Of a stretch of DNA of 64,000 bases, positions 43,862 to 58,496 are shown one piece after another. Every line of letters starts with the position of its first letter. Position 1 is the stretch's first letter. A model generated the notes under the pieces. The model saw only the letters and a program-made list of their open reading frames with translations, searched no databases and had not been told where the DNA came from. This DNA comes from a virus (lineage: Duplodnaviria; Caudoviricetes), in IMG/VR virus record IMGVR_UViG_3300010352_000284, positions 16,443 to 80,442 of that record, one strand, 5' to 3'. A program made the translations under genes and the position numbers.

Positions 43862-44050
43862 TCATTCTCTCTTTAATTTTAGACGACGAATTAGAGTTTC
43901 ATAAGCGTTCTTTTGTAAACTTTCTTTCGGAATATAAACGGGTTCATCTAGGTCAATCTCAAAATCACATAGATAAACTTCAGTTTCTAAGTTATCAAAA
44001 TCGCCAAACAAAATTCCACCATCATCATCAACAGTCATTTGAATTTTCAT
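43862..44050 (-). CDS. MKI...KRL microprotein
   Basis: MKIQMTV...LIRRLKLKRE. Confidence 0.6.
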   Translation of the reverse strand: MKIQMTVDDDGGILFGDFDNLETEVYLCDFEIDLDEPVYIPKESLQKNAYETLIRRLKLKRE

Positions 44051-44235
44051 AGCAGTTTCAATCTCTTTATAATTCGTCTATATTCAGTTTTCCGGTTTGA
44101 CCAATTAGGGATTTCGCAAGGAGTTTCTTTGTTTAGTTCTTTATAATTAAAATATAGTTCATTATCTTCCGCATTAATATTATCGTATGGAAGAAAATGA
44201 ACCCCAGATCGCACCAACCTAATTGTAACTTTCAA
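44047..44235 (-). CDS. MKI...KRL microprotein
   Basis: MKVTIRL...IIKRLKLL; ATGA overlap. Confidence 0.6.
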   Translation of the reverse strand: MKVTIRLVRSGVHFLPYDNINAEDNELYFNYKELNKETPCEIPNWSNRKTEYRRIIKRLKLL

Positions 44236-44570
44236 ATTTCAACCCCCGCGACAATGAGCAATCTTCTAATTTCAACCAATTCTGCCAGCATTTCGTTCTT
44301 GCTGTATAGAAGGAATGTTGTGCTATCTTTCATGAAATTTTCAGCATCTTCATCGGACTGGAATGGAGTGATTTCAAAATTTACCAAGATGGAAATATAG
44401 TAATAGTCTTTGAAATTATCGCATATCATTATTACTGAGAGATTGTTTAGAAATTCTGTGGGAACCGATTTCTTTAATTTGAAATATTGTTCTTTTGATA
44501 GAGCAATGTCGTACTTATAGGATATTAAATACGTGCCTACAAGAATCTTTTTGAATTTTAGTTCATTCAT
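44232..44570 (-). CDS. Hypothetical protein
   Basis: Start moved to ATG44570, overlapping the upstream gene end. Confidence 0.55.
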   Translation of the reverse strand: MNELKFKKILVGTYLISYKYDIALSKEQYFKLKKSVPTEFLNNLSVIMICDNFKDYYYISILVNFEITPFQSDEDAENFMKDSTTFLLYSKNEMLAELVEIRRLLIVAGVEI

Positions 44571-45021
44571 CAAACTCAAACTCTCCCGCACCAAACAATT
44601 CCTCAGTCTTGATGAATTCTTCCTTGTCGAAATATTTGATTTTCATCCCGGCAAACTTAGCAATCAATTCATCTGAGTGACGAATGTATAACAATGCCAT
44701 GGTGTCAGTGTCATCCATGATTTCGTTGATCGCTGTTTTCAAATCAGATTCTTTTGTCTGTGTTGGAATTGTTCGGAATAGAAGAACTCCTGTAGACGAA
44801 TCAAGTTCATAAGTTTTGCTAGCAGTGATTAGAACATCTTTGAATTCGGTTAACATTGTCTTCACCTTTTCCATTTGCTCTACAGGGAAGACGAAATTGA
44901 AAAGGTATGTGTCTCCAGAACTTGAACCAATGTTTTGAACCATTGCCTTGATAGCATTGATCGAGATTCCAAGGTCATCCGATTCTTTCTCAAACTTTTC
45001 AAGAACAAACTTAATTTTCAT
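44563..45021 (-). CDS. Hypothetical acidic protein with an MKIKFV start
   Basis: 152 aa; first 18 nt identical to the upstream microprotein. Confidence 0.6.
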   Translation of the reverse strand: MKIKFVLEKFEKESDDLGISINAIKAMVQNIGSSSGDTYLFNFVFPVEQMEKVKTMLTEFKDVLITASKTYELDSSTGVLLFRTIPTQTKESDLKTAINEIMDDTDTMALLYIRHSDELIAKFAGMKIKYFDKEEFIKTEELFGAGEFEFDE

Positions 45022-45184
45022 ATTTGAGCCTTTTCAATATTTTATGTTCTATGATTGGTTCTTGTTGAACATATGAATTTGTGAAAATTTCACCATGGCA
45101 ACTAACATATCCAACTTCATTCGGGGACGTACCAAAAATCCAACATTCTTCAGAATATTCTCTAATTACAAACTTAATTTTCAT
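45011..45184 (-). CDS. MKI...KRL microprotein (57 aa, not in track)
   Basis: MKIKFVIREY...IEHKILKRLKYEN. Confidence 0.6.
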   Translation of the reverse strand: MKIKFVIREYSEECWIFGTSPNEVGYVSCHGEIFTNSYVQQEPIIEHKILKRLKYEN

Positions 45185-45395
45185 ATATTTTTAGTTTCAT
45201 TCTGTTTGCGAATTTCTTATAAGATGGGACGGCTAATCCAGACACAGGAATTATAAAGTTATCAACTCCACATAATTCATCAAATGTTGCAATGATGTGG
45301 TTTTCAATTTTTTCCCAATTTTCATCATTTGAAAAAGAAAACCCTAACGGAATTTGTTTTTCTCCATCCATATAGACGCGCATTCCAATTTTCAT
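45174..45395 (-). CDS. MKI...KRL microprotein
   Basis: MKIGMRV...NRMKLKIYEN. Confidence 0.6.
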   Translation of the reverse strand: MKIGMRVYMDGEKQIPLGFSFSNDENWEKIENHIIATFDELCGVDNFIIPVSGLAVPSYKKFANRMKLKIYEN

Positions 45396-45625
45396 ATCGC
45401 CTCGTCTGTGATTTCTTTAATAATTTTCAAACGTTTACATACTTTAATATAACTCTGGAAAATATGTGGTTTATAGTCGCACTCGTTTAAGACAACTACT
45501 TTGTTTAGGAATTCATTATAATAAAATAAAACTTGTTTAGTCCAATTAAATTTTACCCCCTCTGCGCGATAACCAACGGAACCAAAAGAAATCACATCAT
45601 CCGTTACAATTAGTTTTAGTTTCAT
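45392..45625 (-). CDS. MKI...KRL microprotein
   Basis: MKLKLIV..SFGSVG...KRLKII. Confidence 0.6.
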   Translation of the reverse strand: MKLKLIVTDDVISFGSVGYRAEGVKFNWTKQVLFYYNEFLNKVVVLNECDYKPHIFQSYIKVCKRLKIIKEITDEAI

Positions 45626-45852
45626 TAGTCCTCAAGAACAATGGTTTTTATTTTCAAACGTTTTAAAAATTTCCTATAACTTTTGAAAATATTTGTTTCA
45701 TATTTATTTTTACAAATTATGATAGCACCCTCACCAAATTCGGTATAAAATATTGAAACTTGTTGGTCCCATCCGAAATCAATAAAGTTTCTAATGACTC
45801 CGATAGAACCAAACGCGATTCCATTTTTTGCTACATTAGCAGTTATTTTCAT
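45625..45852 (-). CDS. MKI...KRL microprotein (close paralog of 45392..45625)
   Basis: MKITANV..AFGSIG...IFKSY..KRLKIK. Confidence 0.6.
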   Translation of the reverse strand: MKITANVAKNGIAFGSIGVIRNFIDFGWDQQVSIFYTEFGEGAIIICKNKYETNIFKSYRKFLKRLKIKTIVLED

Positions 45853-46262
45853 TCGATTGACTTTAGAGTGATGTGTGTTGGATTGTCCTTGTCGCGAAGA
45901 TAATGCCCAACGAAACCAGCCTTCTCAACATCCGCAGTTTCAAACGTAATCAGAAGTTCGCAAACATTATCCTTCTTATTCTTTCGTTCAATCTTATTAA
46001 TCACAGACACTAGAGAAGTTTCGTTGATAATAAGTTCATAGCTTCCAACTCTCTGACCCCAAGAACAAGAATCGTATGAGATAGAATCCGCAATTGTATT
46101 ATCATCACCTACGAGAATATCATCAAGCATTCCATCTTGGTAATCAATCTTCACCTTTATTTGTGAGACGCGAACAACTTCCTTTGGGTCGGAATCAATA
46201 ATAGTCCGGGTTGCGCTGGAGTGCTTTACAATCTGGCAGGTGTATTCAGTATCGAGCTTCAT
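45849..46262 (-). CDS. Hypothetical protein
   Basis: 137 aa, first gene after the promoter at 46284. Confidence 0.6.
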   Translation of the reverse strand: MKLDTEYTCQIVKHSSATRTIIDSDPKEVVRVSQIKVKIDYQDGMLDDILVGDDNTIADSISYDSCSWGQRVGSYELIINETSLVSVINKIERKNKKDNVCELLITFETADVEKAGFVGHYLRDKDNPTHITLKSIE

Positions 46263-46283
46263 TATAAGCCTTTCGTTTCATAA

Positions 46284-46312
46284 AGTATAGCATATTTATT
46301 CTTCCAAGTCAA
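46284..46312 (-). promoter_or_regulatory. sigma70-like promoter TTGACT-17-TATACT
   Basis: Near-consensus; spacer begins TGGAAGAA. Confidence 0.75.
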
Positions 46313-46329
46313 GCAGTTTCTTTCTATTA

Positions 46330-46369
46330 AAATGAAAAATGGCTCATTAACAACAATGCTAATGAGCCA
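46330..46369 (-). terminator. Intrinsic terminator
   Basis: 10-bp stem TGGCTCATTA/TAATGAGCCA followed by a T-run on the - strand. Confidence 0.7.
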
Positions 46370-46382
46370 CGTACTTATAAAA

Positions 46383-47228
46383 TTAATAAGTCTTTCCTAA
46401 ATAAAGTCCACCATGTTTAGAACCGACTGAACGAGACATAACTTCTTTAGCAGCGTCTCTGATAGGTGCCATAGCTGTACCGGATTCTCTCTTATCTTCT
46501 GCATGAATTACATTTCGAAGATTCTTTTCGATCTTGTTGTATATTTCACCCTTTGTCTTTGGATTGATAATGAGTCTTGGAGCAGCTTTCTTCATTTCAG
46601 CAATAATGTCATTGACAAAAGCGTCCATCTTATCAGAATCTTTCAAAAGTTCAACAATCTGTTTTCTTGGCATTTCTCTGAATCGGTTTAATAGGTCATC
46701 AGGCTTTGGTGCTGGAGTGCTGGATTTATCATCTCCGAGTCCAAAATAATTCTTCTCAACAGCAATCTTATAAATTGAAGGAATTGCCAGCCCGATGAGA
46801 GGAGCCAATCCAGACACGAGAGTTGCGATTGCCAAGGATTCTTCTAGCTCAATTTCTTCAGCGCCTTTGATGATTGATTCGATGGTGTCTTTCATATCTT
46901 TCATCGCAGCTTTACAAGAATCAAGCTTTGCGTAAGAAACATCATCTTCATCAGGGTTCTCTGCCTTCATCTTTCCAACAAGTTCATCACCATCAAACAC
47001 TGAGACTGAGATCGAAAGCTTAACATCTTCATTCTTCTTAGCTGTGACAATTGCCTTATATTCCTTTTCAGCAGTTTCATCATCAACAACAAGGACGAAT
47101 TTCTTCCCATCCATTTCAGAGAACTTGAATGCTCCAAACTTTGTCTTGACATCAAATCCATTTTCCGCTTTTTCCTTTAGAGCAGTGAGCGGGTCAACAC
47201 TTTCATACAACCAATTTTTGAAATTCAT
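46383..47228 (-). CDS. Late acidic protein with a capsid-targeting-like N-terminus (MNFKNWLYES)
   Basis: SD GGAG; ATAAATA at 47252-47258 on the - strand. Confidence 0.6.
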   Translation of the reverse strand: MNFKNWLYESVDPLTALKEKAENGFDVKTKFGAFKFSEMDGKKFVLVVDDETAEKEYKAIVTAKKNEDVKLSISVSVFDGDELVGKMKAENPDEDDVSYAKLDSCKAAMKDMKDTIESIIKGAEEIELEESLAIATLVSGLAPLIGLAIPSIYKIAVEKNYFGLGDDKSSTPAPKPDDLLNRFREMPRKQIVELLKDSDKMDAFVNDIIAEMKKAAPRLIINPKTKGEIYNKIEKNLRNVIHAEDKRESGTAMAPIRDAAKEVMSRSVGSKHGGLYLGKTY

Positions 47229-47254
47229 ATTTATCTCCAATTATCTAACATTAT

Positions 47255-47434
47255 TTATCTTATTTGGCTCGGATGGTTCCAATGAAAATAATGAAGACCT
47301 TTTGCCGCGAAGTTTTCATTTGGGAATAATTGAGAACTGAAGAATGGAGTTATTTCGTTTCCAGCATAGCAACGAATTACATAATAAGTTTCAACTTGCT
47401 CATATTCTTGAGTTATCTTGAATATTATTTTCAA
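47255..47434 (-). CDS. MKI-type microprotein (TTG start, 59 aa, not in track)
   Basis: LKIIFKITQEY...PSQIR. Confidence 0.45.
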   Translation of the reverse strand: MKIIFKITQEYEQVETYYVIRCYAGNEITPFFSSQLFPNENFAAKGLHYFHWNHPSQIR

Positions 47435-47625
47435 CGATTTAATCTTTCAATGATATGTTTTTCGATTTCATAATAAGGCTGGCATGGGAAATGGTTTGTT
47501 ACGAGATGGCCAATATATGTTACAAAATATAAAGATGGACAGTCTAAGAGTTTTTCATATGTCGTAGGACCAATTGTAAAACAGTCTTTATTTTTACTCC
47601 AAGATAATTGTAACCTAATTTTCAT
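47431..47625 (-). CDS. MKI...KRL microprotein
   Basis: MKIRLQL...IIERLNR. Confidence 0.6.
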   Translation of the reverse strand: MKIRLQLSWSKNKDCFTIGPTTYEKLLDCPSLYFVTYIGHLVTNHFPCQPYYEIEKHIIERLNR

Positions 47626-47822
47626 AATTTCAACCTTTTCATTATTCTTTCTTCTTTTTGTTGAAGTGGATTTTTATTATTCCAGTGATTTGTTTCTAAT
47701 CCAACATCTCCAATAAAAGAATAAAACAAACTCACTTCGTCCGGGTCATCTTTCGAACCAAATATCATAACAAACGCATCTTTGTCTTCATCGCTCCATT
47801 CTATTCTAAATTTAATTTTCAT
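47622..47822 (-). CDS. MKI...KRL microprotein
   Basis: MKIKFRI...IMKRLKL; ATGA overlap. Confidence 0.6.
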   Translation of the reverse strand: MKIKFRIEWSDEDKDAFVMIFGSKDDPDEVSLFYSFIGDVGLETNHWNNKNPLQQKEERIMKRLKL

Positions 47823-47986
47823 AGTCTGCTCCATCGAATCGGTAAGAAAATCTGTTCCCATTGACTGACGTAAACATTTTTCCCGACATAATAAGAATAT
47901 TCTGGTTTTATGAACTGTAAATCGGAATTGATAACTATAAGATGAAGAATTTTGTAACGGTGAACTAATTTAAATTTAACTTTCAT
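47819..47986 (-). CDS. MKI-type microprotein (55 aa, not in track)
   Basis: MKVKFKL...IRWSRL. Confidence 0.55.
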   Translation of the reverse strand: MKVKFKLVHRYKILHLIVINSDLQFIKPEYSYYVGKNVYVSQWEQIFLPIRWSRL

Positions 47987-48135
47987 TTGATTCTTTTTCC
48001 ATTAAAATTTCCAGGACAATATATGTAAATAATTTCTTCTATTTTATCTCCTACAATTTCATCAAGATAGGAAAGTCGGTCTTCCTGGCTAAAATGAAAG
48101 TAATTGTTCGAAAATATTCTAAGTTTTATTTTCAT
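47983..48135 (-). CDS. MKI-type microprotein (50 aa, not in track)
   Basis: MKIKLRI...GKRIK. Confidence 0.55.
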   Translation of the reverse strand: MKIKLRIFSNNYFHFSQEDRLSYLDEIVGDKIEEIIYIYCPGNFNGKRIK

Positions 48136-48322
48136 ATCCAAGCCTTTTTAATATTTTCAATTGTTGTTTTCTTTTTTCTCCGCCGATATTACAAGAATTT
48201 GGTTCAGCGTATCCATAATGATGCACAAATCCGTGGCTAATATCATTTCCTTTTGAATCAATACGAATTCCAAAAAAGAAACTTCCCTTCACATATTCTT
48301 CAACAGAGTAACGAACTTTCAT
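48119..48322 (-). CDS. MKI...KRL microprotein
   Basis: MKVRYSVEEY...LKILKRLGYENKT. Confidence 0.6.
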   Translation of the reverse strand: MKVRYSVEEYVKGSFFFGIRIDSKGNDISHGFVHHYGYAEPNSCNIGGEKRKQQLKILKRLGYENKT

Positions 48323-48374
48323 ATGATTCAGTTCATCGCAAATCTCGTCCTTCAGGTTTTGTAACAAAGATATA

Positions 48375-48416
48375 TTAGTTGTCTACATATTCTTCTATTT
48401 TATAACGAACTTTCAT
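48375..48416 (-). pseudogene. Truncated microprotein copy (MKVRYKIEEYVDN*)
   Basis: Near-duplicate of the 48322 N-terminus; stops after 13 aa. Confidence 0.4.
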
Positions 48417-48425
48417 TTTGACTCC

Positions 48426-48433
48426 TATAAATA
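48426..48433 (+). promoter_or_regulatory. Late promoter (TATAAATA)
   Basis: Upstream of SD GAGG and ATG48454. Confidence 0.65.
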
Positions 48434-48453
48434 GTTTGAAGAGGACTAATACT

Positions 48454-48753
48454 ATGGAATTTAGAGAATTTGTAGAAAAGGATATGGAAGCTCTTCGCCT
48501 TGATGAAGCTCGAATCAATTTCAGCAAGGTGACAGAACTGATGGACAAACTTCTGAAGACTGGAAAGAAATTTGATGGCCTTTATGAAGATGGTGTGAAA
48601 GTTTTGGCATATGTTTCTCATTTGAAGGCTGCTGGTGGTAAGGCAAAATTGGCATCCGACACTCTTGGAGTTTCTTTACCAACACTTCAAGGAAACAATG
48701 ATAAGAATGTTTTGAAAGCATACAACGTCCCAGAGGAGCTTTGGAAGAAATGA
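48454..48753 (+). CDS. Late protein with a capsid-targeting-like N-terminus (MEFREFVE)
   Basis: Antisense island within the array. Confidence 0.6.
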   Translation: MEFREFVEKDMEALRLDEARINFSKVTELMDKLLKTGKKFDGLYEDGVKVLAYVSHLKAAGGKAKLASDTLGVSLPTLQGNNDKNVLKAYNVPEELWKK

Positions 48754-49274
48754 TAGACTTTAAGACTTACGTAGAACAGACAATGCTAACAGAAATGGCA
48801 CGGAGAACTGATCTAATTAATTTCGGCAAGATTGGAGATGCTTTGAAGACAATAGAATCTGCGGGAATTGATTTGTCTAAGTATTCTTTGAACGAAATCC
48901 AAGCAGCATTTTTCAATTTTTATGAAGAGATTGTTGGTGGAGATATGGAAACGGTTGACGGTCGTATAAAACACGCTGCTGGAGTTATGGCTTATTGGAA
49001 ACCTTCTGCTTCAGGTAAAGAACAAACTATTGGAAAATCTGGTATTGTTCGAGGAACTACTGATTGGAATTACAGAGGATATAAAGAGAAGTATACTGAT
49101 ATGTCTAAGCATGGTATTGAAGCTATTACAGATGTTATTGCTGCTGATAAAAAGAAGCACACGGTTTCATTCTCAGAACTAAAGAAATCAAGACACGCAA
49201 ACCCAGAATTCGCAAAAGAACAGAAATTGGGAACGGTTAAGAAAAAAGAACAAAAAGACGAAGATGATGAATAA
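48750..49274 (+). CDS. Late protein with a capsid-targeting-like N-terminus (MIDFKTYVE..LTE)
   Basis: ATGA-coupled to the previous gene. Confidence 0.6.
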   Translation: MIDFKTYVEQTMLTEMARRTDLINFGKIGDALKTIESAGIDLSKYSLNEIQAAFFNFYEEIVGGDMETVDGRIKHAAGVMAYWKPSASGKEQTIGKSGIVRGTTDWNYRGYKEKYTDMSKHGIEAITDVIAADKKKHTVSFSELKKSRHANPEFAKEQKLGTVKKKEQKDEDDE

Positions 49275-49310
49275 AAAGAAGCCTCGAGAAAATCGGGGCT
49301 TTTTCTTTAT
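49273..49310. terminator. Bidirectional intrinsic terminator
   Basis: AAGCCTCGA-gaaaa-TCGGGGCTT flanked by A- and T-runs between convergent genes. Confidence 0.7.
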
Positions 49311-49597
49311 CTTGGTATATATGATTTCATTGTGGTTTTACGAATCAGTGGACGATGATGCTCTGGTGTCGCATGTTCAATCCAAAGTTTTCCGCAACCA
49401 CAGGAGCAAAACAAAATTTTAGTAGGACCGAAAGAATTCAAATTAATCGAATATGATTCTTGGACTTTTGATGTACTTTTTTCCATATATGTTGATGAAT
49501 ATGAGCAAGACCCACAGCCAGGACATGTGAATTGTTCTTGGAGAATTTCGTCAGTTTCTCCAATCATTAATTGCTTAGAGCGTTCGTCAAAATTCAT
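49307..49597 (-). CDS. Putative zinc-ribbon protein
   Basis: CPGCGSC...CSCGCG. Confidence 0.55.
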   Translation of the reverse strand: MNFDERSKQLMIGETDEILQEQFTCPGCGSCSYSSTYMEKSTSKVQESYSINLNSFGPTKILFCSCGCGKLWIEHATPEHHRPLIRKTTMKSYIPR

Positions 49598-49645
49598 TTT
49601 TCCTCCTAGTTTGATATTTGTTGTTAACTCAAGAAAATTGGATTT

Positions 49646-49834
49646 TTAGTTCCATTTCAATATTCGTTTATTACAGGTCCAGCGAGAATATATAGCATTA
49701 ATCATAACAGTTACCCATTTTGATTCGTTAATAAAATTTCCGCGATAATATTGTTGACGAGAACAAATTCCAAACCTATTGACGGTCCCTAGTGATGAAT
49801 GACGGGAATTATAATACAAAACTACCTTTGCCAT
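49646..49834 (-). CDS. Microprotein, MAK subtype
   Basis: MAKVVLYY...NKRILKWN. Confidence 0.55.
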   Translation of the reverse strand: MAKVVLYYNSRHSSLGTVNRFGICSRQQYYRGNFINESKWVTVMINAIYSRWTCNKRILKWN

Positions 49835-49992
49835 TTCTTTATCCTTTTAGGAATGAATGTTGAATATTTCCCATTAACAAGTTTAACAATAGGACAACGA
49901 TAAACATAAACATCAGAATCCAAAATAAATGATTGGTGAACATTTCCAATTATTGTTGTAATTTCAAAATATTGTAGAACTAATTTACTCAT
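49822..49992 (-). CDS. Microprotein, MAK subtype
   Basis: MSKLVLQY...NGKYS...KRIKKWQR. Confidence 0.55.
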   Translation of the reverse strand: MSKLVLQYFEITTIIGNVHQSFILDSDVYVYRCPIVKLVNGKYSTFIPKRIKKWQR

Positions 49993-50194
49993 ATTTTCTA
50001 ACTCGTTTATTAGAAGCATATTTCGAGAACTTCCCGTTAAAAATCGTAGTTACTCGTCTTTCGGAGAATCGTTTTCTCTTTGGAAATTTTAATTCTTCTT
50101 CAGGGCATATATAAAAACATTTGTAATTTCCAAAAGGTAAGAAAAGAGAAGGGCTTTCGGTTGAGTCTGAATAATACAAAACTGCCTTTGCCAT
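49985..50194 (-). CDS. Microprotein, MAK subtype
   Basis: MAKAVLYY...NGKFS...KRVRKYE. Confidence 0.55.
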   Translation of the reverse strand: MAKAVLYYSDSTESPSLFLPFGNYKCFYICPEEELKFPKRKRFSERRVTTIFNGKFSKYASNKRVRKYE

Positions 50195-50634
50195 TTCTTC
50201 ATCCTTTTAGAAAAATTATCTCCAGCAACAACTACAGGCACAACTTCATTTTTCAAAACTTGCTTTAACCCTTTACGCAAATCACAGGTAAGTAATGTTC
50301 TTTTTTGAATTTTCTTTTTCCAAATCGCTCTAATCAAGTAATTCGAATGTTCTAGAAATTCATCAATGTCGCCGCTTTCATAAGGAATGAATGTGGCAAA
50401 TGAAAAAACTACAAATAATAAAGATAAAATTGTGAATATTGGACTTTTAAAAATATAAAATGAAACTATAAGCGGGCCTAAAAAAAATAATGAAACTACC
50501 GTACCGTAAACACTACAAAACAAAATAGTCATCCCATCATTGCTACAACGGCTCGTTCCCCAAGATGCTCCTTTCAAAACATATTTCATAAAAAACAATA
50601 TTGGATATTTAAGCAGCATTAAAACGGCCTTCAT
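50089..50634 (-). CDS. Membrane protein with a basic C-terminal module (KRMKKW)
   Basis: Two hydrophobic segments; reads through the junction into the next gene. Confidence 0.55.
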   Translation of the reverse strand: MKAVLMLLKYPILFFMKYVLKGASWGTSRCSNDGMTILFCSVYGTVVSLFFLGPLIVSFYIFKSPIFTILSLLFVVFSFATFIPYESGDIDEFLEHSNYLIRAIWKKKIQKRTLLTCDLRKGLKQVLKNEVVPVVVAGDNFSKRMKKWQRQFCIIQTQPKALLFSYLLEITNVFIYALKKN

Positions 50635-50795
50635 TTCAACCTCTTCAAAAGTTTTAGATTGTTAGAATTTTTATTTTTATCATCAACCGCGAGGATCGAC
50701 ATTTTATCAGAATTTATATGTTTATAATTTCCAAAAACAAAGAAACTAATACTGTTCTGATATTTGTCTTTTAAGATTCCCATTTGTATTTTCAT
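50631..50795 (-). CDS. MKI...KRL microprotein (54 aa, not in track)
   Basis: MKIQMGI...LKLLKRLK. Confidence 0.6.
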   Translation of the reverse strand: MKIQMGILKDKYQNSISFFVFGNYKHINSDKMSILAVDDKNKNSNNLKLLKRLK

Positions 50796-51157
50796 AGACC
50801 ATCCTTTACTATTTCAAAAACGTCTACAATTTTAGGGTCTTCAAAAATTTCAATACAACACTCATCTTTTAACAATTTAGCGACAACATCATAGACTTTA
50901 TAATCAATAATGCCATAAAATTTTTGTCCATTCAATTCGAGATAACGTTTACTTGATTTCAACATATTCGTCATCGCTGAATTGAATGCTCCTTTTGAAC
51001 TCCACGTTTTTCCTGTTTTTGACCAACGTTTAGCAGCATCCTTCTCGTTGGTTTGAATACCCCAATGACCCGATAATCCAGAAATGTAAAAAGGAATTTC
51101 TCCTCCGCCAATCCAATATAACCCTGTCTTTTTGTTTTTCAATTTATAGACAGCCAT
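50792..51157 (-). CDS. Hypothetical phage protein
   Basis: VYKLKNKKTGLY...WSKTGKTW. Confidence 0.6.
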   Translation of the reverse strand: MAVYKLKNKKTGLYWIGGGEIPFYISGLSGHWGIQTNEKDAAKRWSKTGKTWSSKGAFNSAMTNMLKSSKRYLELNGQKFYGIIDYKVYDVVAKLLKDECCIEIFEDPKIVDVFEIVKDGL

Positions 51158-51179
51158 GAAGACTCCGATTGAAAATAAT

Positions 51180-51341
51180 TTAACGACACTTTTCCATTCG
51201 TTTTCTATTGAATTTTAAGTAAGGAGAACTGTATGTATTGTTATTCGGGAATATTTGCCGTAATATGTTCATTTGTTCCCCATCGGAATAATGAGATATG
51301 CAAACCGAATAACCATTACGTACACACAATTTAATTTTCAT
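51180..51341 (-). CDS. MKI-type microprotein (53 aa, not in track)
   Basis: MKIKLCV...RKRMEKCR. Confidence 0.55.
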   Translation of the reverse strand: MKIKLCVRNGYSVCISHYSDGEQMNILRQIFPNNNTYSSPYLKFNRKRMEKCR

Positions 51342-51562
51342 AAGTATTTCCGAATCAATTCTTTATATTGTTTGAAATTTGTCCGTTTTAGAAATCTCAG
51401 ATTATAATGGATTATAGCAGTTATACAAGATTTGTTATCAATGTCACAGTTCTTTGGGTAAATATCTGTGCCGTTTTTGAAACAGACAAAATTGATATTC
51501 CCATCAGGTGTGAAATTAAATTCACCTGTTGGGTCGTGATATATTTTTGCGACAACCTTCAT
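51338..51562 (-). CDS. Microprotein
   Basis: MKVVAKI...LIRKYL. Confidence 0.55.
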   Translation of the reverse strand: MKVVAKIYHDPTGEFNFTPDGNINFVCFKNGTDIYPKNCDIDNKSCITAIIHYNLRFLKRTNFKQYKELIRKYL

Positions 51563-51758
51563 GAAAACCTCCGGTGCATTCTAGAAGCAAATTTTTTATT
51601 TAACAAACTAAATCCCGAAATGAATATGTAATAAGAGGTGTTTTGAATTTCTTCTAAAGCATCAAGACGAACTATTTTTGTATATTCTTTTCGGTTCTCG
51701 CAAGTAAAAACATATCATTGTATGAATCGGGCGGTGTTATGCGAAATCTCACAACCAT
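51559..51758 (-). pseudogene. Frameshifted microprotein
   Basis: MVVRFRI... stops after 28 aa; the -1 frame continues to ...SRMHRRFS* and couples to the next ATG. Confidence 0.4.
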
Positions 51759-51937
51759 TTATAAATCCTTTTGGCGAATATACGATTTTCATAATTAAAA
51801 GCTAATATCCATGGATTAAGTGAAATATGATCATCCCACCGAAAATCTTCAATCAACAAGCTTTCGCGATTGTTTACACTTCTTACAAATCTTGCTGTAA
51901 ATAATCCCGGTTTTTTATACTTCAATCTGATTTTCAT
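51749..51937 (-). CDS. MKI-type microprotein
   Basis: MKIRLKY...KRIYKWL. Confidence 0.6.
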   Translation of the reverse strand: MKIRLKYKKPGLFTARFVRSVNNRESLLIEDFRWDDHISLNPWILAFNYENRIFAKRIYKWL

Positions 51938-52172
51938 TGTCGCGAAACCTCTTTTTCACAAGTTCCAGGTATCCTTCGAAAATTGAATTTATCCACACAA
52001 ATATAGTAAAACTAAATCGCCCTGTAAAGCCCATTTTATCGGACTTTGACAGTATTTGTCTATCCACATTTTATACACATTTTTGAACGTATCCACAATC
52101 TATCAACATAGGTAAAAATAGGTATATTCACCCCTTTAATCGATTGAGAAAAACATATGCTGAAAATATGAA

Positions 52173-52358
52173 TTATTTCTTCACAGACTTCATAATCAAT
52201 GTGAGTTTTCTAAGTTTGTTGATTTTTGGTTTATTAGATAATACAAGTCCACCATCCCGAACTATGAATATTGGATTTGTGTCATCGAATACTCGTCATG
52301 CCCGAAATGTTGGGTAATATATCGATTGTGTTGGAAAATATTTCATTACAATTTTCAT
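52173..52358 (-). pseudogene. MKI-type microprotein with an in-frame TGA at codon 21
   Basis: MKIVMKYFPTQSIYYPTFRA*RVFDDTNP...KLRKLTLIMKSVKK; TGA at 52296-52298. Confidence 0.5.
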
Positions 52359-53373
52359 AGTCCCTCAATCTGCTGTTCGTTGTTCGTTGAAACTCTGTCG
52401 CCACCAAGAATCAGATTCCCACAAGTCACTGCTCCTTTTTCTTCATCCATTGAGGGAACGAAGACAAGAACATCAAATCCATTGTCTTCAAATTTTGTTC
52501 AACTGATTCATAAGGGGTGTAGGAAGAATATCCATCAACAGTTTCAATTCCATTTTTCCGACATTCTTTATTGTTATGGATTGGAGTGATTTTTATCATG
52601 AACTTATTGCTATCAAACAACGACTTCAAACGGCTACCATCAATCTTAAATGTTGAAGCATATGCGAAATTCAAACAATATTTTCTTCCAACTGGTTCTG
52701 GTAAACGCTCTCCGATTTTACTCAATTGTTCAAGAGTTATTGCCTTATTAGAAAACATATATTGCCGCTGGTCTTCATCAGTCGAATTGATGCTGAATTG
52801 AAGTCCTGCTTGCCCATTATACATTTCATTCTTAATGTCGCACCATTGGAGAATTCGAGATTCCAAATCGTTCAAATAGTTTGGAAGGGATGTTGTTAGA
52901 ACTGGATGTAGAACTTCAATTCTCAAATCCAATTCTTCTTGAAGCTGTCGTTTATTTTGGTGTAAATATTCCGCAAACTTGAAAACGGCCTTGTTGAAAA
53001 TAGGCTCTCCACACCGTGCAAAATGAAGATTCAAACGTTCTGAATATTTGACATTAGGGAACAGATTCCTAGCATTCTTGAATTGAGAGAACAAATCGTC
53101 AAACGAGCAATTGCCACGGAACGGAATGTTTGGACATGAGCAGAAGACGCATGATTGAGAACATCCTCGCTGAGTTGAAACCGTTATCACCCATTTGCTC
53201 TGAATAGGCTCGCAAATTCCGTTAGAAACTCCATTCAGAGGTTTTGAAAGTCCAAGAAAATCGGCTTTGACATTCTTTGACTTCCCATAATCTCCAATTG
53301 ATAATGTTTCTAATTGATAGTTCTTATAATCTTCAATGAACAAATACCCTGTAGGAATTTTAATGATTTTCAT
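52355..53373 (-). CDS. RlmN/Cfr-like radical SAM enzyme, split by a -1 frameshift at about 52489-52495
   Basis: STQRGCSQSCVFC, ARCGEP, LQFSINSTDE.QR. The 0 frame stops at 52426; the -1 frame supplies GFDVLVFVPS.DEE...TCGNL and ends at 52355. Confidence 0.75.
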
Positions 53374-53548
53374 ATTTCCCTCTTTTGATTAGTGTTGGTT
53401 TTCTTGAATTTTCGATCATGTAAATAGTTTCAAAGTTTCCATTTACCTTACATGAAAGAAATTGGAGTCGGTTACAATCGTTTGGATAATATAACCTAAA
53501 CATGTGATGCCCCCATTTATCTTTTTCATATTTTAGAGTAAGTTTCAT
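53360..53548 (-). CDS. MKI-type microprotein
   Basis: MKLTLKY...LIKRGKYENH. Confidence 0.55.
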   Translation of the reverse strand: MKLTLKYEKDKWGHHMFRLYYPNDCNRLQFLSCKVNGNFETIYMIENSRKPTLIKRGKYENH

Positions 53549-53742
53549 TGAGACCTCTTGCACCCAAACGGAGTTCTTTTTATCTTATCTTTGTTATAAA
53601 TTAAACCAACATTACTAACCCAGAACAGTAAATATTCATTAGCATATTCGAATCTTACAGGTTTATATGTTTTGTAATCACAGTTAATAAACCTAACATA
53701 AAAATTGGATGTTTCAGGTAAGCATCTTAAGATAATTTTCAT
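53545..53742 (-). CDS. MKI-type microprotein
   Basis: MKIILRC...DKIKRT. Confidence 0.55.
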   Translation of the reverse strand: MKIILRCLPETSNFYVRFINCDYKTYKPVRFEYANEYLLFWVSNVGLIYNKDKIKRTPFGCKRSQ

Positions 53743-53924
53743 AGAGCCGCCCTTATCTTGTCAAAAAATATAACGTTTCTTGTACTCTTTGTGAAATACT
53801 GACTTTCTCCGAGATTATTGCTCCAGAAAGGCATTTTGTAATTGTGTGGATTTTCGTGATTAATAAGAATAAAGCAATGCCAGACAGAATCTTCTTCATG
53901 CTTATATTTCAATCCAATTTTCAT
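53739..53924 (-). CDS. MKI-type microprotein (tandem duplicate)
   Basis: MKIGLKY...VIFFDKIRAAL. Confidence 0.6.
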   Translation of the reverse strand: MKIGLKYKHEEDSVWHCFILINHENPHNYKMPFWSNNLGESQYFTKSTRNVIFFDKIRAAL

Positions 53925-54103
53925 AGAGCCGCCCTTATCTTATCAAAAAATATAACTTTCCTACTGAGTCTATTTGTATAATACTTACTTTTCCTATTAT
54001 TGCACCAGAAAACCAGTTTGTACATGTTTAGATTATAATCAACTATATCAAACATATGCCATGCCAAATTTTTGTCATAATTATATCTCAACCCTATTTT
54101 CAT
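53921..54103 (-). CDS. MKI-type microprotein (tandem duplicate)
   Basis: MKIGLRY...VIFFDKIRAAL. Confidence 0.6.
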   Translation of the reverse strand: MKIGLRYNYDKNLAWHMFDIVDYNLNMYKLVFWCNNRKSKYYTNRLSRKVIFFDKIRAAL

Positions 54104-54127
54104 ATAACCGAATTCTTAAACTTATCT

Positions 54128-54298
54128 TCAAACCAACCTCTTTATCTTCAAGCGTTTGGCAATCTTAATATATCTTTTATTATCTCCTCCTGAAAAATAT
54201 AATGTGAACCAATCTGTCGAAAAACAAAAACTACCATAATTAGTAATATATCCATAGTCTGATTCAAAATCTTTAGAACATCGTAATCGTATCTTCAT
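54128..54298 (-). CDS. MKI...KRL microprotein
   Basis: MKIRLRC...IAKRLKIKRLV. Confidence 0.6.
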   Translation of the reverse strand: MKIRLRCSKDFESDYGYITNYGSFCFSTDWFTLYFSGGDNKRYIKIAKRLKIKRLV

Positions 54299-54459
54299 TT
54301 CGTTCCCCATCTTTTCAGTCTTTTATGATAGTATTCGACAACATTATCATTTGCCGCAACCAGGGAATACTTTTTACTCTCAATGAAATAAAAAGAACCA
54401 AATTTAGTTATTCTCAAAGCTTTCTTGATTTTCACATTTCTTCCAATCTTCAAAACCAT
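54295..54459 (-). CDS. Microprotein (54 aa, not in track)
   Basis: MVLKIGRNVKIK...HKRLKRWGTK. Confidence 0.5.
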   Translation of the reverse strand: MVLKIGRNVKIKKALRITKFGSFYFIESKKYSLVAANDNVVEYYHKRLKRWGTK

Positions 54460-54477
54460 TCATCCAACATCAGATGA

Positions 54478-54506
54478 AATATAATCAATTTTTTCTTCCA
54501 AGGCAA
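54478..54506 (-). promoter_or_regulatory. sigma70-like promoter TTGCCT-17-TATATT
   Basis: Spacer again begins TGGAAGAA. Confidence 0.6.
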
Positions 54507-54507
54507 G

Positions 54508-54732
54508 TCAACCCATCTTATAAAATTCATCGCCTGTTATAATTTTTATCCTCATACGTTTACAGAATTTTACTAATATTGGGCATCTTTTTATTTGTTC
54601 GTCTGTAGTCATTAAATAAAACTTAGACACAAAGCACCAGTCTGAAATGCCTCTTCCTTCCTCAAATCCAAGATAAAAACTAAAATCATCATCACCTTCA
54701 TTATCTTTCTTAACTTTCAAAACAATCTTCAC
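54508..54732 (-). CDS. MKI...KRL microprotein
   Basis: MKIVLKV...CKRMRIK. Confidence 0.6.
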   Translation of the reverse strand: MKIVLKVKKDNEGDDDFSFYLGFEEGRGISDWCFVSKFYLMTTDEQIKRCPILVKFCKRMRIKIITGDEFYKMG

Positions 54733-54911
54733 GATTTTTCTCCCCAGCGTTTTATCATTCGGTTCAAGATTTTGTGATTTACAGATTTACAACAACCTCG
54801 TTCACCATGAGCAACCCAATATCCTACAAAATCATAATTATCCCATTGCTGGTCTAACCTAAATTGGAAAACTGTCGCATCGTTGTCAAAAACTTTCATG
54901 TACATTTTCAT
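54729..54911 (-). CDS. MKI-type microprotein
   Basis: MKMYMKV...ILNRMIKRW. Confidence 0.6.
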   Translation of the reverse strand: MKMYMKVFDNDATVFQFRLDQQWDNYDFVGYWVAHGERGCCKSVNHKILNRMIKRWGEKS

Positions 54912-55093
54912 TTGATTCTACTCTTTCCAAAACGTTTATGAAGATTTATATTCCCCTCATTCTTTCCATATGAGCTAACATAATCTTCATAAACATAGTA
55001 ACGATCATCATAATCTGTATTGAAAGATATTCTTACGCCTCGAGCTGTGTTATAGCTGCCCGCGAATATATGCATTCTAACTTTCATCTCCAT
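54908..55093 (-). CDS. MKI-type microprotein
   Basis: MKVRMHI...HKRFGKSRIK. Confidence 0.55.
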   Translation of the reverse strand: MEMKVRMHIFAGSYNTARGVRISFNTDYDDRYYVYEDYVSSYGKNEGNINLHKRFGKSRIK

Positions 55094-55518
55094 TTCTCCA
55101 ATCTCTGAAAAAATCGGCTGCCCATTGGTTCAATACGAATTCCTTTGATGTTTGCTGTTACCATTCTTATGCTACATTCATTAAGTCCCATTCTTATTAT
55201 TTTCCGCTTTCTTATTTTTGAATACAAGCATTTCAATCCAAACTTACAACTTGGAATGAAATTACCGGTTATACAAATACGGTTATTGAAATAAGGTAAG
55301 ACTAGGGCAATGCTACAAATCAATCCAATCACCGGAACAAAATAAATTAACAAGCCTCCCGTAATTAAAAGACTCGCCGTAATTCCCCAACCATCATCAT
55401 CAAACAACCAGTCTGACAATTTTACAAATATGAATAATAATGGAAGACTACAGAATACAAAACTCCAAACAATCAGAGTAGGAATTACATACCACCAAGA
55501 AAATGACAACAACTTCAT
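55084..55518 (-). CDS. Membrane protein with a basic C-terminal module (RLEKWR)
   Basis: Two or three TM segments, then KFG...KRKIIR. Confidence 0.6.
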   Translation of the reverse strand: MKLLSFSWWYVIPTLIVWSFVFCSLPLLFIFVKLSDWLFDDDGWGITASLLITGGLLIYFVPVIGLICSIALVLPYFNNRICITGNFIPSCKFGLKCLYSKIRKRKIIRMGLNECSIRMVTANIKGIRIEPMGSRFFQRLEKWR

Positions 55519-55691
55519 CGTTCTATCCTTTTCAAAATTTTCAGTTCAATTTTTCTTTCTCTGCTACTGTTATTCATATGGTTTGGAATTAATTTAGCAT
55601 TTCGTACAACTAAACAAATATCATCGTTCGTATTATTCATTCCAAAAACCCACATTTCTGCATGCTTATAAACTTCATATCGTATTTTCAT
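55515..55691 (-). CDS. MKI...KRL microprotein
   Basis: MKIRYEV...LKILKRIER. Confidence 0.6.
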   Translation of the reverse strand: MKIRYEVYKHAEMWVFGMNNTNDDICLVVRNAKLIPNHMNNSSRERKIELKILKRIER

Positions 55692-56029
55692 TGCCACCTC
55701 TTCATTCTGTTTTCGTATTTCTTCCCAGGCGACATCTGCGAGCAGCATTTCCAATTCGTTTCTAGCAAATTAAAATCTCCTGTTCTTTTCATTGTAAGAC
55801 GGACAACTTTCCTACGTTTGAACAATTGTCTAACTCCGAATTTTACTATTTTTGGCTTGATAGGTTCTGCTAAATCAAAATAGAACACAACAATCAAATA
55901 TAATGTTACTGGAATTATGATGAATGGATAATAAAACAGCCCAATTATAAGCGTAGCGAGAGATGAATATGATAGCAAGTCCGCCTCGTCGACGAACCCA
56001 GGAACAATTTTGACCAATATGAGAGACAT
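55688..56029 (-). CDS. Membrane protein with a basic C-terminal module (RMKRWQ)
   Basis: TM segments, then KFG...RRKVVR; the 5' end may be degraded. Confidence 0.5.
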   Translation of the reverse strand: MSLILVKIVPGFVDEADLLSYSSLATLIIGLFYYPFIIIPVTLYLIVVFYFDLAEPIKPKIVKFGVRQLFKRRKVVRLTMKRTGDFNLLETNWKCCSQMSPGKKYENRMKRWQ

Positions 56030-56122
56030 TGCTATTGCTGGGATATACGGAATCGCACATACCCAATTATCAACGCGGCAAACATTCGAAACAATTTATA
56101 TTCCATCGTTACATATTTCCTC

Positions 56123-56314
56123 CTAAACTACAGGTCTCTTAAGTCTTCTCTTATATGTTTCTTTTATCCTGACATATTTCGACCCTGAAAAATCATTCCA
56201 AAGTCCTACAAGTCCAGACTCATAAAATCTAGATACTCCACAAAACCGTCCACAAAGCAGTCTCATTTCAGCAAATCCACCACGTATTCCAAACTTCAAT
56301 CTAATTTTTGCCAT
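56123..56314 (-). CDS. MKI...KRL microprotein
   Basis: MAKIRLKF...YKRRLKR. Confidence 0.6.
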   Translation of the reverse strand: MAKIRLKFGIRGGFAEMRLLCGRFCGVSRFYESGLVGLWNDFSGSKYVRIKETYKRRLKRPVV

Positions 56315-56321
56315 ATGTTCC

Positions 56322-56513
56322 TCACTGTTCTTTCAATCCAAGCCGACGTAGAATCTTATATTCTTTTTCAACGTATGGATGCTCTTAGTGAAATGATTGT
56401 AATACAGTATCCCCAATGTAGCAAAATAAACGAATACCGCAATACGAGGGATTTCCAAACGTGTAATATCTACCAACCGTATTTTTGTACTTAACACAAT
56501 ATCTAATTTTCAA
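56322..56513 (-). pseudogene. MKI...KRL microprotein with an in-frame TAA at codon 43
   Basis: LKIRYCVKY...QSFH*EHPYVEKEYKILRRLGLKEQ; TAA at 56385-56387. Confidence 0.55.
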
Positions 56514-56644
56514 ACCTCTCTCCTTTTTAATCTTTTTTGAAACTTTTCACGGTAATAATCTGAATAATATTTCCCATGAACCGAAACTTTATCAGAATAT
56601 AGCGCATACATATTAATATCTTTCACAAACATTGATATCTTCAT
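56510..56644 (-). CDS. MKI...KRL microprotein (44 aa, not in track)
   Basis: MKISMFV...FQKRLKRREV. Confidence 0.55.
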   Translation of the reverse strand: MKISMFVKDINMYALYSDKVSVHGKYYSDYYREKFQKRLKRREV

Positions 56645-56823
56645 TTTATCCCTAACCTCCTCAAAATGTTCTGTTCAATTTGGTACTTTGGATGGGATTT
56701 TTGATGATTCGCGACGATACGATTTTCAAAAATTCTGTAAAACAAACTGGCGTCCTTATAATTATTCCCACCAATAGCAAAATTCCCAGAACTGTTGATT
56801 CTAACTCTATATACAATCTTCAT
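56641..56823 (-). CDS. MKI...KRL microprotein
   Basis: MKIVYRV...NILRRLGIK. Confidence 0.6.
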   Translation of the reverse strand: MKIVYRVRINSSGNFAIGGNNYKDASLFYRIFENRIVANHQKSHPKYQIEQNILRRLGIK

Positions 56824-56954
56824 TTCCTAATCCTTTCATCCAAATCAAAACAAACATCATAACTATAATTCAACCAAACTATAAACTTACGACAATTCTT
56901 ACTAACAGTTTTATGCCACACATCACACGACTTCCAATTAATCCTATGAATCAT
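56820..56954 (-). CDS. Microprotein (44 aa, not in track)
   Basis: MIHRINW...DERIRK; ATGA overlaps at both ends. Confidence 0.5.
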   Translation of the reverse strand: MIHRINWKSCDVWHKTVSKNCRKFIVWLNYSYDVCFDLDERIRK

Positions 56955-57136
56955 ATAATACTCTTCTTTCCAAATCTCCTGTAATTAACCGTCATATAAC
57001 ATCCAAGACACGAATTAATATTATTCTTATTGATGTAATACTCTCCATAAAAATCATCAGCCTTAATAATTATCCTCGCACACAAATCCGTTATCCCAGA
57101 CACCCCCCATTCACAAATCTTATATCTAATCTTCAT
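56951..57136 (-). CDS. MKI-type microprotein
   Basis: MKIRYKI...YRRFGKK. Confidence 0.6.
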   Translation of the reverse strand: MKIRYKICEWGVSGITDLCARIIIKADDFYGEYYINKNNINSCLGCYMTVNYRRFGKKSII

Positions 57137-57345: not shown

Positions 57346-57514
57346 ACTCAACCTCCGTTCCCAAATCCTCATTAACAAACCAACGATAATTCTCAGCTTG
57401 ACTTATCTCAGCAAAACTCCGAGCAACAATCCGACGAATCCCAGCATCACATCGCCTCATAATAAAATCCCGAAACTCAGTATATAAATCGGATTTCCTA
57501 ACTTCATGTATCAT
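57335..57514 (-). CDS. Hypothetical small protein (59 aa, not in track)
   Basis: MIHEVRK...; loosely similar to the downstream ORF. Confidence 0.45.
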   Translation of the reverse strand: MIHEVRKSDLYTEFRDFIMRRCDAGIRRIVARSFAEISQAENYRWFVNEDLGTEVEYDS

Positions 57515-58496
57515 TCACACACCTCCCAACAAAAGAATTCTCAGCATCAAATTTATTATTATACTTTACAATACAATCTAAACAATTATTCCGACATATA
57601 TTATCAGAATGAATGTCGTGCCGCTTCACCCATTCAAATCTCTCTTCTCTCATTCTTTCACCAACCTGGCCAATTGGCTCTCCACCCTCACGCATGTATA
57701 TCACACAAGGATAATGATGATCACCCGAAACAACCATGTCATCCAAAGCAATCCAACACTTCCGACAATCAGCCTCACTAACTCCACGAACATTAACACC
57801 ATTCATAACATTCTCAATCCGATACTTCAAAATAGGATACTTTCTATATATCTCTTCAGGAATATCTATGACAACATCTAATATCTGATTATATTGTGCC
57901 GCAGAAATAATCCGAATGTCCGAAACTCCTAGTCCAGAAGCAAATTCAATAACATCCCGCAATGTATGAACAGTCTCCTCAGTTACAACAATACCAACTG
58001 TCGTATACACCCGCTTAGAAACATGACGAATACATTCTACCACCTTCTCAAAAACTCCACTCCGTCCAGCCATCATGTCTCCATACGAAGAACAACAAGC
58101 ATCTAACGAAATGGAAAAATCATTCACCCCAGCTTCAATCAACTTGTCATAAACATCCAACCCCGCAGAACCGTTGGAAGAAATGGCAATCCGCGAAACA
58201 TTAGAATCCCGACAATGCGAAACTAACTTCTCCAATCCCGGCCATAAAGTCGGCTCACCTCCAGAAAAACGAACATTCTCCAATCCCTCAGAAATCCACA
58301 GGTCAACAATCCGCAACGCCTCAGAATAACTCAACGTCTTCTTCAAATCACTTCGCTGACCACGACAATACTTACACTTAAAATTACAAGCATCCGTCAA
58401 AATCAATTCACACCTCTTCAAATCACTCTCATTGGTAGCCGATACACAACGAGAATCCGAAAGAGTGTAAAATCCAATATCTTCAAGCTTCATCAC
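57504..58496 (-). CDS. Radical SAM enzyme (MoaA/SPASM-like)
   Basis: CNFKCKYC, GGEPTL, SISLD, C-terminal Cys cluster; SD GGAGG. Confidence 0.85.
   Translation of the reverse strand: MMKLEDIGFYTLSDSRCVSATNESDLKRCELILTDACNFKCKYCRGQRSDLKKTLSYSEALRIVDLWISEGLENVRFSGGEPTLWPGLEKLVSHCRDSNVSRIAISSNGSAGLDVYDKLIEAGVNDFSISLDACCSSYGDMMAGRSGVFEKVVECIRHVSKRVYTTVGIVVTEETVHTLRDVIEFASGLGVSDIRIISAAQYNQILDVVIDIPEEIYRKYPILKYRIENVMNGVNVRGVSEADCRKCWIALDDMVVSGDHHYPCVIYMREGGEPIGQVGERMREERFEWVKRHDIHSDNICRNNCLDCIVKYNNKFDAENSFVGRCVNDT

Follow-up and report, generated by a model that had tools for sequence, protein, structure and literature searches.

The minus strand of positions 43862-57136 in a 64,000-nt stretch of tailed-phage DNA (the window: bases 16443-80442 of the 80.4-kb contig IMGVR_UViG_3300010352_000284) is tiled by about 35 open reading frames (ORFs) of 42-77 aa. 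With a probability of about one half, we read this array as an accessory region of a T4-like myovirus, probably early, that was filled by tandem birth-and-death expansion of one family of mostly basic proteins of about 60 residues. The family itself and its cassette-wise turnover are well supported. As to function, we tentatively propose that the products may be dispensable host-interaction proteins made early in infection.

The plus strand of the contig encodes a T4-type structural module (large terminase, tail sheath, baseplate hub, and wedge; 1-39555), with a terminase about 40% identical to those of the T4-like phages phiM9, Melnitz, and HTVC008M. The minus strand carries a NAD-dependent ligase (39998-41815), a MazG-like protein, two radical S-adenosylmethionine (SAM) genes, and the microprotein array; a radical SAM and promoter-rich region lies past 57504, and the array sits between conserved core gene blocks of the T4-like genome. 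The window sequence recurs at 99.98% identity in three other assemblies, and related sequence is present in runs from activated sludge, wastewater, and sediment (11 studies). The proteins are probably expressed early, which fits the position and strand of the array, the tight coupling of its genes, and the lack of a T4-type late promoter on the array strand. Weak sigma-70-like sites lie upstream of the array, in a promoter scan that stayed near background (100 promoter-like sites versus 72 ± 10 expected), and terminator-like sites number 5 versus 7.5 expected, with none at a member junction.

End motifs and homology of the microproteins

The first-pass annotation had described a region tiled by tiny, mostly overlapping ORFs with fixed ends, and both features hold up. 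When ORFs are started at the MK motif, overlaps occur at 29 of the 35 junctions, 23 by the 4 nt of ATGA and 6 more by 1-106 nt, an arrangement that would suit translational coupling. Lysine occupies position 2 in 29/35 ORFs, and I, V, L, or M occupies position 3 in 30/35. Among the 31 small minus-strand ORFs of the array, the strict N-terminal motif MK(I/V)-x-hydrophobic-(K/R) is present in 14 and the strict C-terminal motif (K/R)R(L/I/M/F)x in 18, versus 0/76 for either motif in the other genes of the contig. Seven other phage loci with 66-139 small ORFs each, including a 31%-GC locus with 75 small ORFs, contain at most one such motif ORF per locus. The controls being nearly motif-free, the end motifs are therefore not a general property of coupled AT-rich phage ORFs.

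Single-sequence searches connect only neighbours and a few distant pairs. Six members (45011, 47431, 47622, 48119, 55515, and 56641) align over their whole length, sharing the elements F-G, N-H, and I-E-x-K-I-L-K-R-L; profile iteration within the window from this subfamily stalled, with the next array ORFs at E 0.03-0.07. When the first 7 and last 14 residues of every member were stripped and the middles compared all against all by local score, 13 pairs reached at least 35, versus 2.5 ± 1.8 in shuffles, and the mean score was 4.4 standard deviations higher. In view of this excess and of the six members that align end to end, the middles cannot be called unrelated or unalignable, as they had been at first. 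In a leave-one-out profile test that also dropped relatives above 35% identity, 23 of 36 sequences scored above all 1861 decoys, among them 17 of the 29 from the window. Two members kept out of the profile also scored above every decoy, at E 0.003 (53739) and 0.004 (N-terminal part of 56322), and a third extra member enters through its paralogue. As for the remaining 15 groups, 13 align colinearly and over full length to the core with hhalign scores of 8.9-18, none significant alone, versus 1.6-4.2 for shuffles, while 56123 and 56820 fail every homology test. Taken together, these comparisons suggest a membership of about 20 demonstrable, about 13 probable, and two doubtful ORFs. The 35-40 members counted by the first-pass annotation stand as a count of motif-bearing ORFs, with homology demonstrable for about 20 only; its proposal of one family expanded on a small scaffold is upheld by the 17 window members that pass the leave-one-out test and by a predicted fold of beta-sheet and helix.

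The family appears to be confined to this phage lineage. A 36-sequence profile searched against 1.84 billion representative proteins gave 15 matches, all to proteins of this phage or its strain variants, and a word-indexed search gave the same picture. No match to the family was found in Pfam, PHROGs, PADLOC, or the PDB sequences, and megablast of the array against 50,697 phage records gave none either. ESM Atlas returned no usable match, and a related-locus search of viral contigs with a 285-aa array gene returned no match. The loci reached through the two radical SAM proteins belong to unrelated phages without arrays and served as negative controls only.

The C-terminal motif lies 0-39 nt from the stop codon, and it had been cautioned that its KR codons could be conserved as the Shine-Dalgarno site of the next gene. 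Carried to its full extent, this caveat would make the fixed ends by-products of expression signals, the MKI start supplying A-rich sequence for initiation and the KR codons a Shine-Dalgarno site for the gene coupled downstream, and the ORFs unrelated ORFans packed in one operon. The 21 arginine codons of the motif comprise 7 AGG, 6 AGA, 5 CGT, 2 CGA, and 1 CGC, and 6 of the 7 AGG codons stand 7-9 nt before the next ATG, that is, at Shine-Dalgarno distance. GGAG/AAGG-type ribosome-binding sites are used elsewhere in the phage, and the ends show less synonymous divergence (dS) than the middles, both as this explanation would have it. So are the C-terminal tails that form the MKI or MAK start of the next gene in another frame: TATGAAAATTAA encodes Y-E-N-stop and, in the next frame, M-K-I-K, while AAATGGCAAAGGTAG encodes K-W-Q-R-stop and M-A-K-V. 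As DNA, these two-frame junctions are repeated over 21-53 nt with 64-94% identity.

However, the motif doubles as the Shine-Dalgarno site of the next gene in about six cases only. Eight of the 21 arginine codons are CGN, without Shine-Dalgarno value, and three members whose downstream gene has its own GAGG site retain the motif at a distance of 24-39 nt from the stop: 45392 and 45625 (KRLK with CGT, 24-30 nt) and 54508 (KRMR with CGT, 39 nt). The motif leucine is likewise encoded by both TTR and CTN codons. The same amino acids are thus kept across synonymous codon families, which argues for selection on the protein; codon usage shows that selection acts on the amino acids of the conserved ends. 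The motif is missing from coupled genes elsewhere in the phage (0/76) and from the AT-rich phage locus, and similarity runs through the middles. The caveat therefore keeps its force for the six well-spaced AGG codons and loses it for the CGN and distant motifs, and a purely signal-driven origin of the ends is distinctly unlikely.

Two larger non-family genes in the array, 44563-45021 and 52354-53373, also begin with an MKI-type N-terminal motif, and each is joined to the microprotein before it by the same two-frame junction. Since such genes carry it, the boundary sequence is not limited to family members.

Turnover of cassettes between strains

Between strains, whole cassettes have been gained, lost, or replaced and middles exchanged, and the breakpoints fall at gene boundaries. 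Strain contigs were compared at 90-95% identity. In L006 and L007, another family member stands in place of 45174-45395: the sequences cease to match right after one ATGAAAATT and match again from the next, both breakpoints being ATGAAAATT starts. In strain X3, a joint 49824>50185 between 43-nt junction repeats removes a 360-nt unit, and in strain X6, a joint 47410>47612 skips 201 nt and with them one member (47431-47625). The orthologue of 55515 in L015 stands in a different neighbour order, with a different gene upstream. In strain contigs, 43862 and 44047 carry other middles, 43862 in X3 at the joint 43904>43995. The long joints 55104>56970 and 56790>57133 were not counted, because their sides are shorter than 30 nt. 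It is at the conserved boundary motif, represented by ATGAAAATT and by the 43-nt repeats around the 360-nt joint, that the differences between strains start and stop.

Divergence is distributed very unevenly along this region. The 152-aa and MazG-like genes are almost unchanged between strains, with nonsynonymous divergence (dN) of 0.004-0.006 and dS of 0.02-0.16. Microprotein orthologues are 45-87% identical, with open frames, identical or nearly identical ends, and diverged middles. In the middles, dS is 0.85-2.3 and dN 0.27-0.57, with dN/dS ratios (omega) of 0.16-0.71; dS is 0.16-0.65 at the ends and 0.02-0.29 in the flanking genes, which the middles exceed 3-15-fold. Since omega is below 1, the products matter, and at the level of codon substitution the genes are shown to be real and under purifying selection. 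Since dS is raised several-fold only in the middles, import of older alleles fits better than a local speed-up; recombination inside the conserved ends would thus be a better explanation than change in place. The earlier description of the array as diversifying is apt for the fast turnover between strains and not for the mode of selection, as the omega of the middles gives no sign of positive selection.

Decay accompanies this turnover. An in-frame TAA at 56385-56387 interrupts an otherwise complete member, 52173-52358 is a probable second case, a 13-codon remnant persists at 48375-48416, and loss of a stop has extended the protein of 50089-50634. A mechanism may lie in the boundary sequence, which would encode the C-terminal helix of one gene together with the Shine-Dalgarno site and MKI start of the next, in several cases read in two frames. 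The same sequence would provide the homology for cassette recombination, both within the array and between co-infecting relatives.

Predicted fold and putative function

The AlphaFold2 model of 45011, built on an 11-sequence subfamily alignment, has strands at residues 5-11, 14-19, 25-29, and 32-35 and a helix at 43-52, with a mean predicted local distance difference test score (pLDDT) of 71. A second model, of a 75-aa member with a 26-sequence alignment (pLDDT 61), displays strands and the same C-terminal helix (53-65), again its best-predicted part, and is too weak to prove a shared fold. The helix (43-52 of 57 and 53-65 of 75 residues) is amphipathic, with hydrophobic residues at i, i+3/4, and i+7 in the alignment. 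The proteins have a mean isoelectric point of 9.0 and a mean net charge of +4.5, with the charge at both ends and neutral or acidic middles. These models suggest that the proteins fold as a small beta-sheet packed on a C-terminal amphipathic helix, in which the Lys/Arg residues that alternate along strand 1 and the Lys-Arg pair in the helix would be conserved and the remaining surface variable. Foldseek against PDB and BFVD found nothing above background (best E 0.28), which does not imply a novel fold; as for an SH3-like barrel with a C-terminal helix, as in small DNA binders of the Sso7d type, SH3 and chromo entries appeared only at E of about 1. A wide VIA structure search gave a best Z of 4.6, to unrelated folds.

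Several points weigh against the reading of the array as an early region filled by expansion of one family. For about 15 ORFs, the only links to the family are short end motifs and profile scores that are raised collectively. The predicted fold reaches no more than moderate confidence and has no match (Foldseek E 0.28, VIA Z 4.6). Contigs from the RNA library (X21) cover pieces of the array, but these are short and could be DNA, and a lack of cover in that run carries no meaning. The junction homology is short as well (9-47 nt), and ancient alleles with selected ends could mimic recombination. Finally, turnover is not rapid within one strain, because three independent samples share an identical array (99.98%).

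If the expansion produced host-interaction proteins, the members would share one basic docking face, for nucleic acid, a membrane surface, or a common partner, and would differ in what else they touch. A more specific version, rather unlikely as it stands, is a putative repertoire of binders, in which the conserved basic face, made of strand 1 and the C-terminal helix, would dock all members to the same cellular structure while the variable surfaces would disable different host or defence proteins. The dual-coding boundaries would let co-infecting phages trade cassettes, and the set would be re-dealt between strains much as tail-fibre modules are.

An unlikely variant of the expansion reading places the family at the inner membrane face, with the C-terminal basic amphipathic helix acting like the C-terminus of MinD or FtsA; we take the family helix to resemble that of MinD in sequence. 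The predicted amphipathic helix agrees with such a role, and three membrane proteins of the array end in the same motif. MinD itself binds the membrane through a C-terminal amphipathic helix (PMC6803595). In our model, however, the helix lies against the sheet as an integral element of the fold, and no homology between the membrane proteins and the family is detectable.

The phage is T4-like, and its array encodes small basic proteins whose N-terminus is fixed and whose bodies vary, a description that recalls the T4 internal proteins IPI-III. These are small basic proteins that share a short capsid-targeting N-terminus on unrelated bodies and are encoded at a polymorphic locus. Members of the array would, by analogy, be loaded into the prohead by an N-terminal signal and injected with the DNA to meet host defences. 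The T4 signal carries a prohead-protease site with the consensus Leu/Ile-x-Glu, yet no consistent site of this kind follows the N-terminal motif in our alignments. The N-terminus is predicted to be a core strand, the array strand has no T4-type late promoter, and the C-terminal motif would go unexplained, all of which makes capsid packaging very improbable.

It is hardly credible that the ORFs are precursors of ribosomally synthesised and post-translationally modified peptides, with the radical SAM enzymes encoded within the array and beside it as their maturases. There are two such genes (52354-53373 and 57504-58496), one of which, 57504-58496, matches a PapB-type peptide-maturase model weakly and over full length (E 1e-12, far below the cut-off), and many small ORFs with fixed ends and variable interiors. 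That enzyme, however, matches generic MoaA-type cores best, and the models nearest to the other one are of the RlmN/Cfr type. Conservation is restricted to 6-7 N-terminal and about 8 C-terminal residues with no conserved Cys/Ser/Thr pattern or other target residue (mean 1.5 Cys), the members are predicted to fold, and loci with 48-63% identical radical SAM homologues, or with homologues of the other of the two enzymes, are devoid of such ORFs.

Array members, neighbouring genes, and known systems

All members lie on the minus strand, and the E values below are those of the leave-one-out test unless another program is named. All nine ORFs that the first-pass annotation had named as examples below its ORF-track cutoff exist, at 45011 (57 aa), 47255 (59 aa, TTG start), 47819 (55 aa), 47983 (50-52 aa), 50631 (54 aa), 51180 (53 aa), 54295 (54 aa), 56510 (44 aa), and 56820 (44 aa). 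At the low-coordinate end of the array, 43862..44050 (62 aa, acidic middle; E 7e-5, above all decoys) and 44047..44235 (62 aa, TTG start; E 8e-4) are core paralogues. The modelled protein, 45011..45184, is a core member (E 5e-6) with orthologues that are 64-72% identical and have identical ends. It is followed by 45174..45395 (core, 73 aa; E 4e-5), the cassette swapped in L006 and L007, and by the neighbouring paralogous core members 45392-45625 (77 aa) and 45625-45852 (75 aa; phmmer E 6e-13), both of which pass leave-one-out.

The next group begins with the peripheral 47255..47434, in which the N-terminal motif is intact and the C-terminal one degraded (hhalign 10.4 versus 1.6-4.2 for shuffles). 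The core members 47431..47625 (64 aa; E 2e-6), missing in X6, and 47622..47822 (66 aa from an inner MK start; E 5.5e-7) come next, the latter with an ATGA overlap with the peripheral 47819..47986, which lacks the C-terminal motif (hhalign 8.9 to the core). Two further core members are 47983..48135 (50 aa; E 1e-5) and 48119..48322 (67 aa; E 2e-4), whose junction repeats that of 45011 with 85% DNA identity (D11). The 13-codon remnant at 48375..48416 duplicates the N-terminus of 48119-48322 as a direct repeat (D15, 81% over 32 nt). Inside the minus-strand array, two plus-strand genes without a family match (111 and 177 aa, 48418-49274) are headed by the only TATAAATA of the region (48426-48433) and end at a 12-bp stem terminator (49276-49304), which also serves the converging minus-strand gene; the pair is possibly a late-expressed insert. 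An adjacent 96-aa ORF with two Cys pairs (49307-49597), outside the family, is cleanly missing from strain contigs of two studies (joint 49299>49643, 343 nt skipped).

Three peripheral members with MAK or MSK starts, 49646-49834, 49822-49992, and 49985-50194, fail leave-one-out. The first and third match each other at phmmer E 6e-5, and the stretch 49646..50194 holds the 360-nt unit between the 43-nt junction repeats (D5, 93% identical). The protein at 50089..50634 is a 181-aa membrane protein, with hydrophobic segments in its translation, an internal KRMKKWQR motif, and a 35-aa extension; its copy of the junction has CAG where the paralogous junction has the TAG stop. Core members follow at 50631..50795 (E 3e-6) and 51338..51562 (74 aa; E 4e-4), and peripheral members with both motifs at 51180..51341 (hhalign 18.2; E 1.1) and 51749..51937 (62 aa; hhalign 14.1). 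The possible decayed member 52173..52358 has an MKIVMK start, an ATGA overlap with the radical SAM gene, and an in-frame stop at 52296-52298, past which the frame runs to a KLRKL-type end.

That radical SAM gene, 52354-53373, is broken near 52486, where an A-run is 1 nt shorter here (TTGAAGAC) than in L003 and L005 (TTGAAAGAC), two other samples in which the unbroken 339-aa ORF ends in an ATGA overlap. The continuous ORF in those samples argues that the break arose as an indel or an assembly variant and against programmed -1 frameshifting. Among viral contigs, the nearest homologue (63%) of the other radical SAM protein, 57504-58496, is encoded by the jumbo-phage-sized contig L018 (IMGVR_UViG_3300030673_000004, 375 kb), which has no microprotein array near its radical SAM gene.

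Upstream along the array strand, 53360-53548 (62 aa) and 53545-53742 (65 aa) are peripheral, with the N-terminal motif and hhalign scores of 16.8 and 12.7, and fail leave-one-out. The neighbouring paralogues 53739-53924 (61 aa) and 53921-54103 (60 aa; phmmer E 3e-17) have a different C-terminus and a junction repeat that is 94% identical over 47 nt (D1). Next come the core members 54128-54298 (56 aa) and 54295-54459, at E 6e-7 and 0.017, above all decoys, and 54508..54732 (74 aa, GTG start; E 2e-5). The peripheral 54729-54911 (60 aa) and 54908-55087 (59 aa) score 17.7 and 17.9 in hhalign and fail leave-one-out. Two membrane proteins, 55084..55518 (144 aa, ending in the QRLEKWR variant of the C-terminal motif; omega 0.38 for the orthologue in L016) and 55688..56029 (113 aa, ending in NRMKRWQ), enclose the core member 55515..55691 (58 aa from an inner MK start; E 6e-7). 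Fusion of family members into the motif-bearing membrane proteins was considered and dropped, since the family profile does not match them.

Of the last genes, 56123..56314 (63 aa, MAK start, RRLK end) is doubtful, having the motifs only and failing both leave-one-out and hhalign. The frame of 56322..56513, the member broken by the TAA at 56385-56387, continues to an ILRRLG-type end. It is followed by 56510..56644 (peripheral, both motifs; hhalign 17.3), the core member 56641..56823 (60 aa; E 6e-7; 45% identical to its L015 orthologue), the doubtful 56820..56954, which lacks the N-terminal motif and fails all tests, and 56951..57136 (peripheral, 61 aa, both motifs; hhalign 13.2), the first gene of the array. 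Outside the window, contig positions 11267-16443 form about 5 kb without an ORF of at least 100 aa (the longest has 95 aa), of which the last 700 nt run into the gene whose end is window ORF 2-493.

Most small early phage genes are isolated ORFans and hard to study, whereas here a single scaffold exists in 20 to 35 natural variants that strains have swapped and lost, a ready comparative series on microprotein function. If it is true that the proteins bind host or defence targets, the array would amount to a compact collection of natural inhibitors; otherwise it would be a clear case of birth-and-death evolution of viral microproteins. The resemblance to T4 internal proteins extends to small size, basic charge, and a shared N-terminus; the array proteins differ from them by the lack of a protease site and of a late promoter, by a conserved C-terminal helix, and by a far larger number of copies.

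The array also resembles a locus of the cyanophage S-PM2, the 'ORFanage', in which one T4-like locus is packed with homologue-less ORFs that are dispensable and variable in populations, with a single large deletion and a fitness cost reported (Puxty et al. 2015, PMC4503421). The parts of that account on which we draw describe no single family with fixed termini. The T4-type hyperplastic regions are blocks of homologue-less small genes between conserved core modules, in which close relatives differ by insertions, deletions, and replacements at short conserved flanking sequences, a modular shuffling mediated by PeSLs (Arbiol et al. 2010, PMC2839356; Comeau et al. 2014, PMC4122927). The present array has the same character, with homologue-less small genes and cassettes lost or swapped among close relatives. 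It differs in the nature of its boundaries and of its genes. PeSLs are intergenic cassettes of a promoter and a stem-loop terminator, whereas the array has almost no intergenic DNA and no stem-loops, and its boundary is coding sequence read by both neighbours. The genes of PeSL regions are unrelated, and those of the array largely form one paralogous family. Cassette exchange would thus take place here at coding boundaries read in two frames, in contrast to the intergenic promoter-terminator cassettes described so far.

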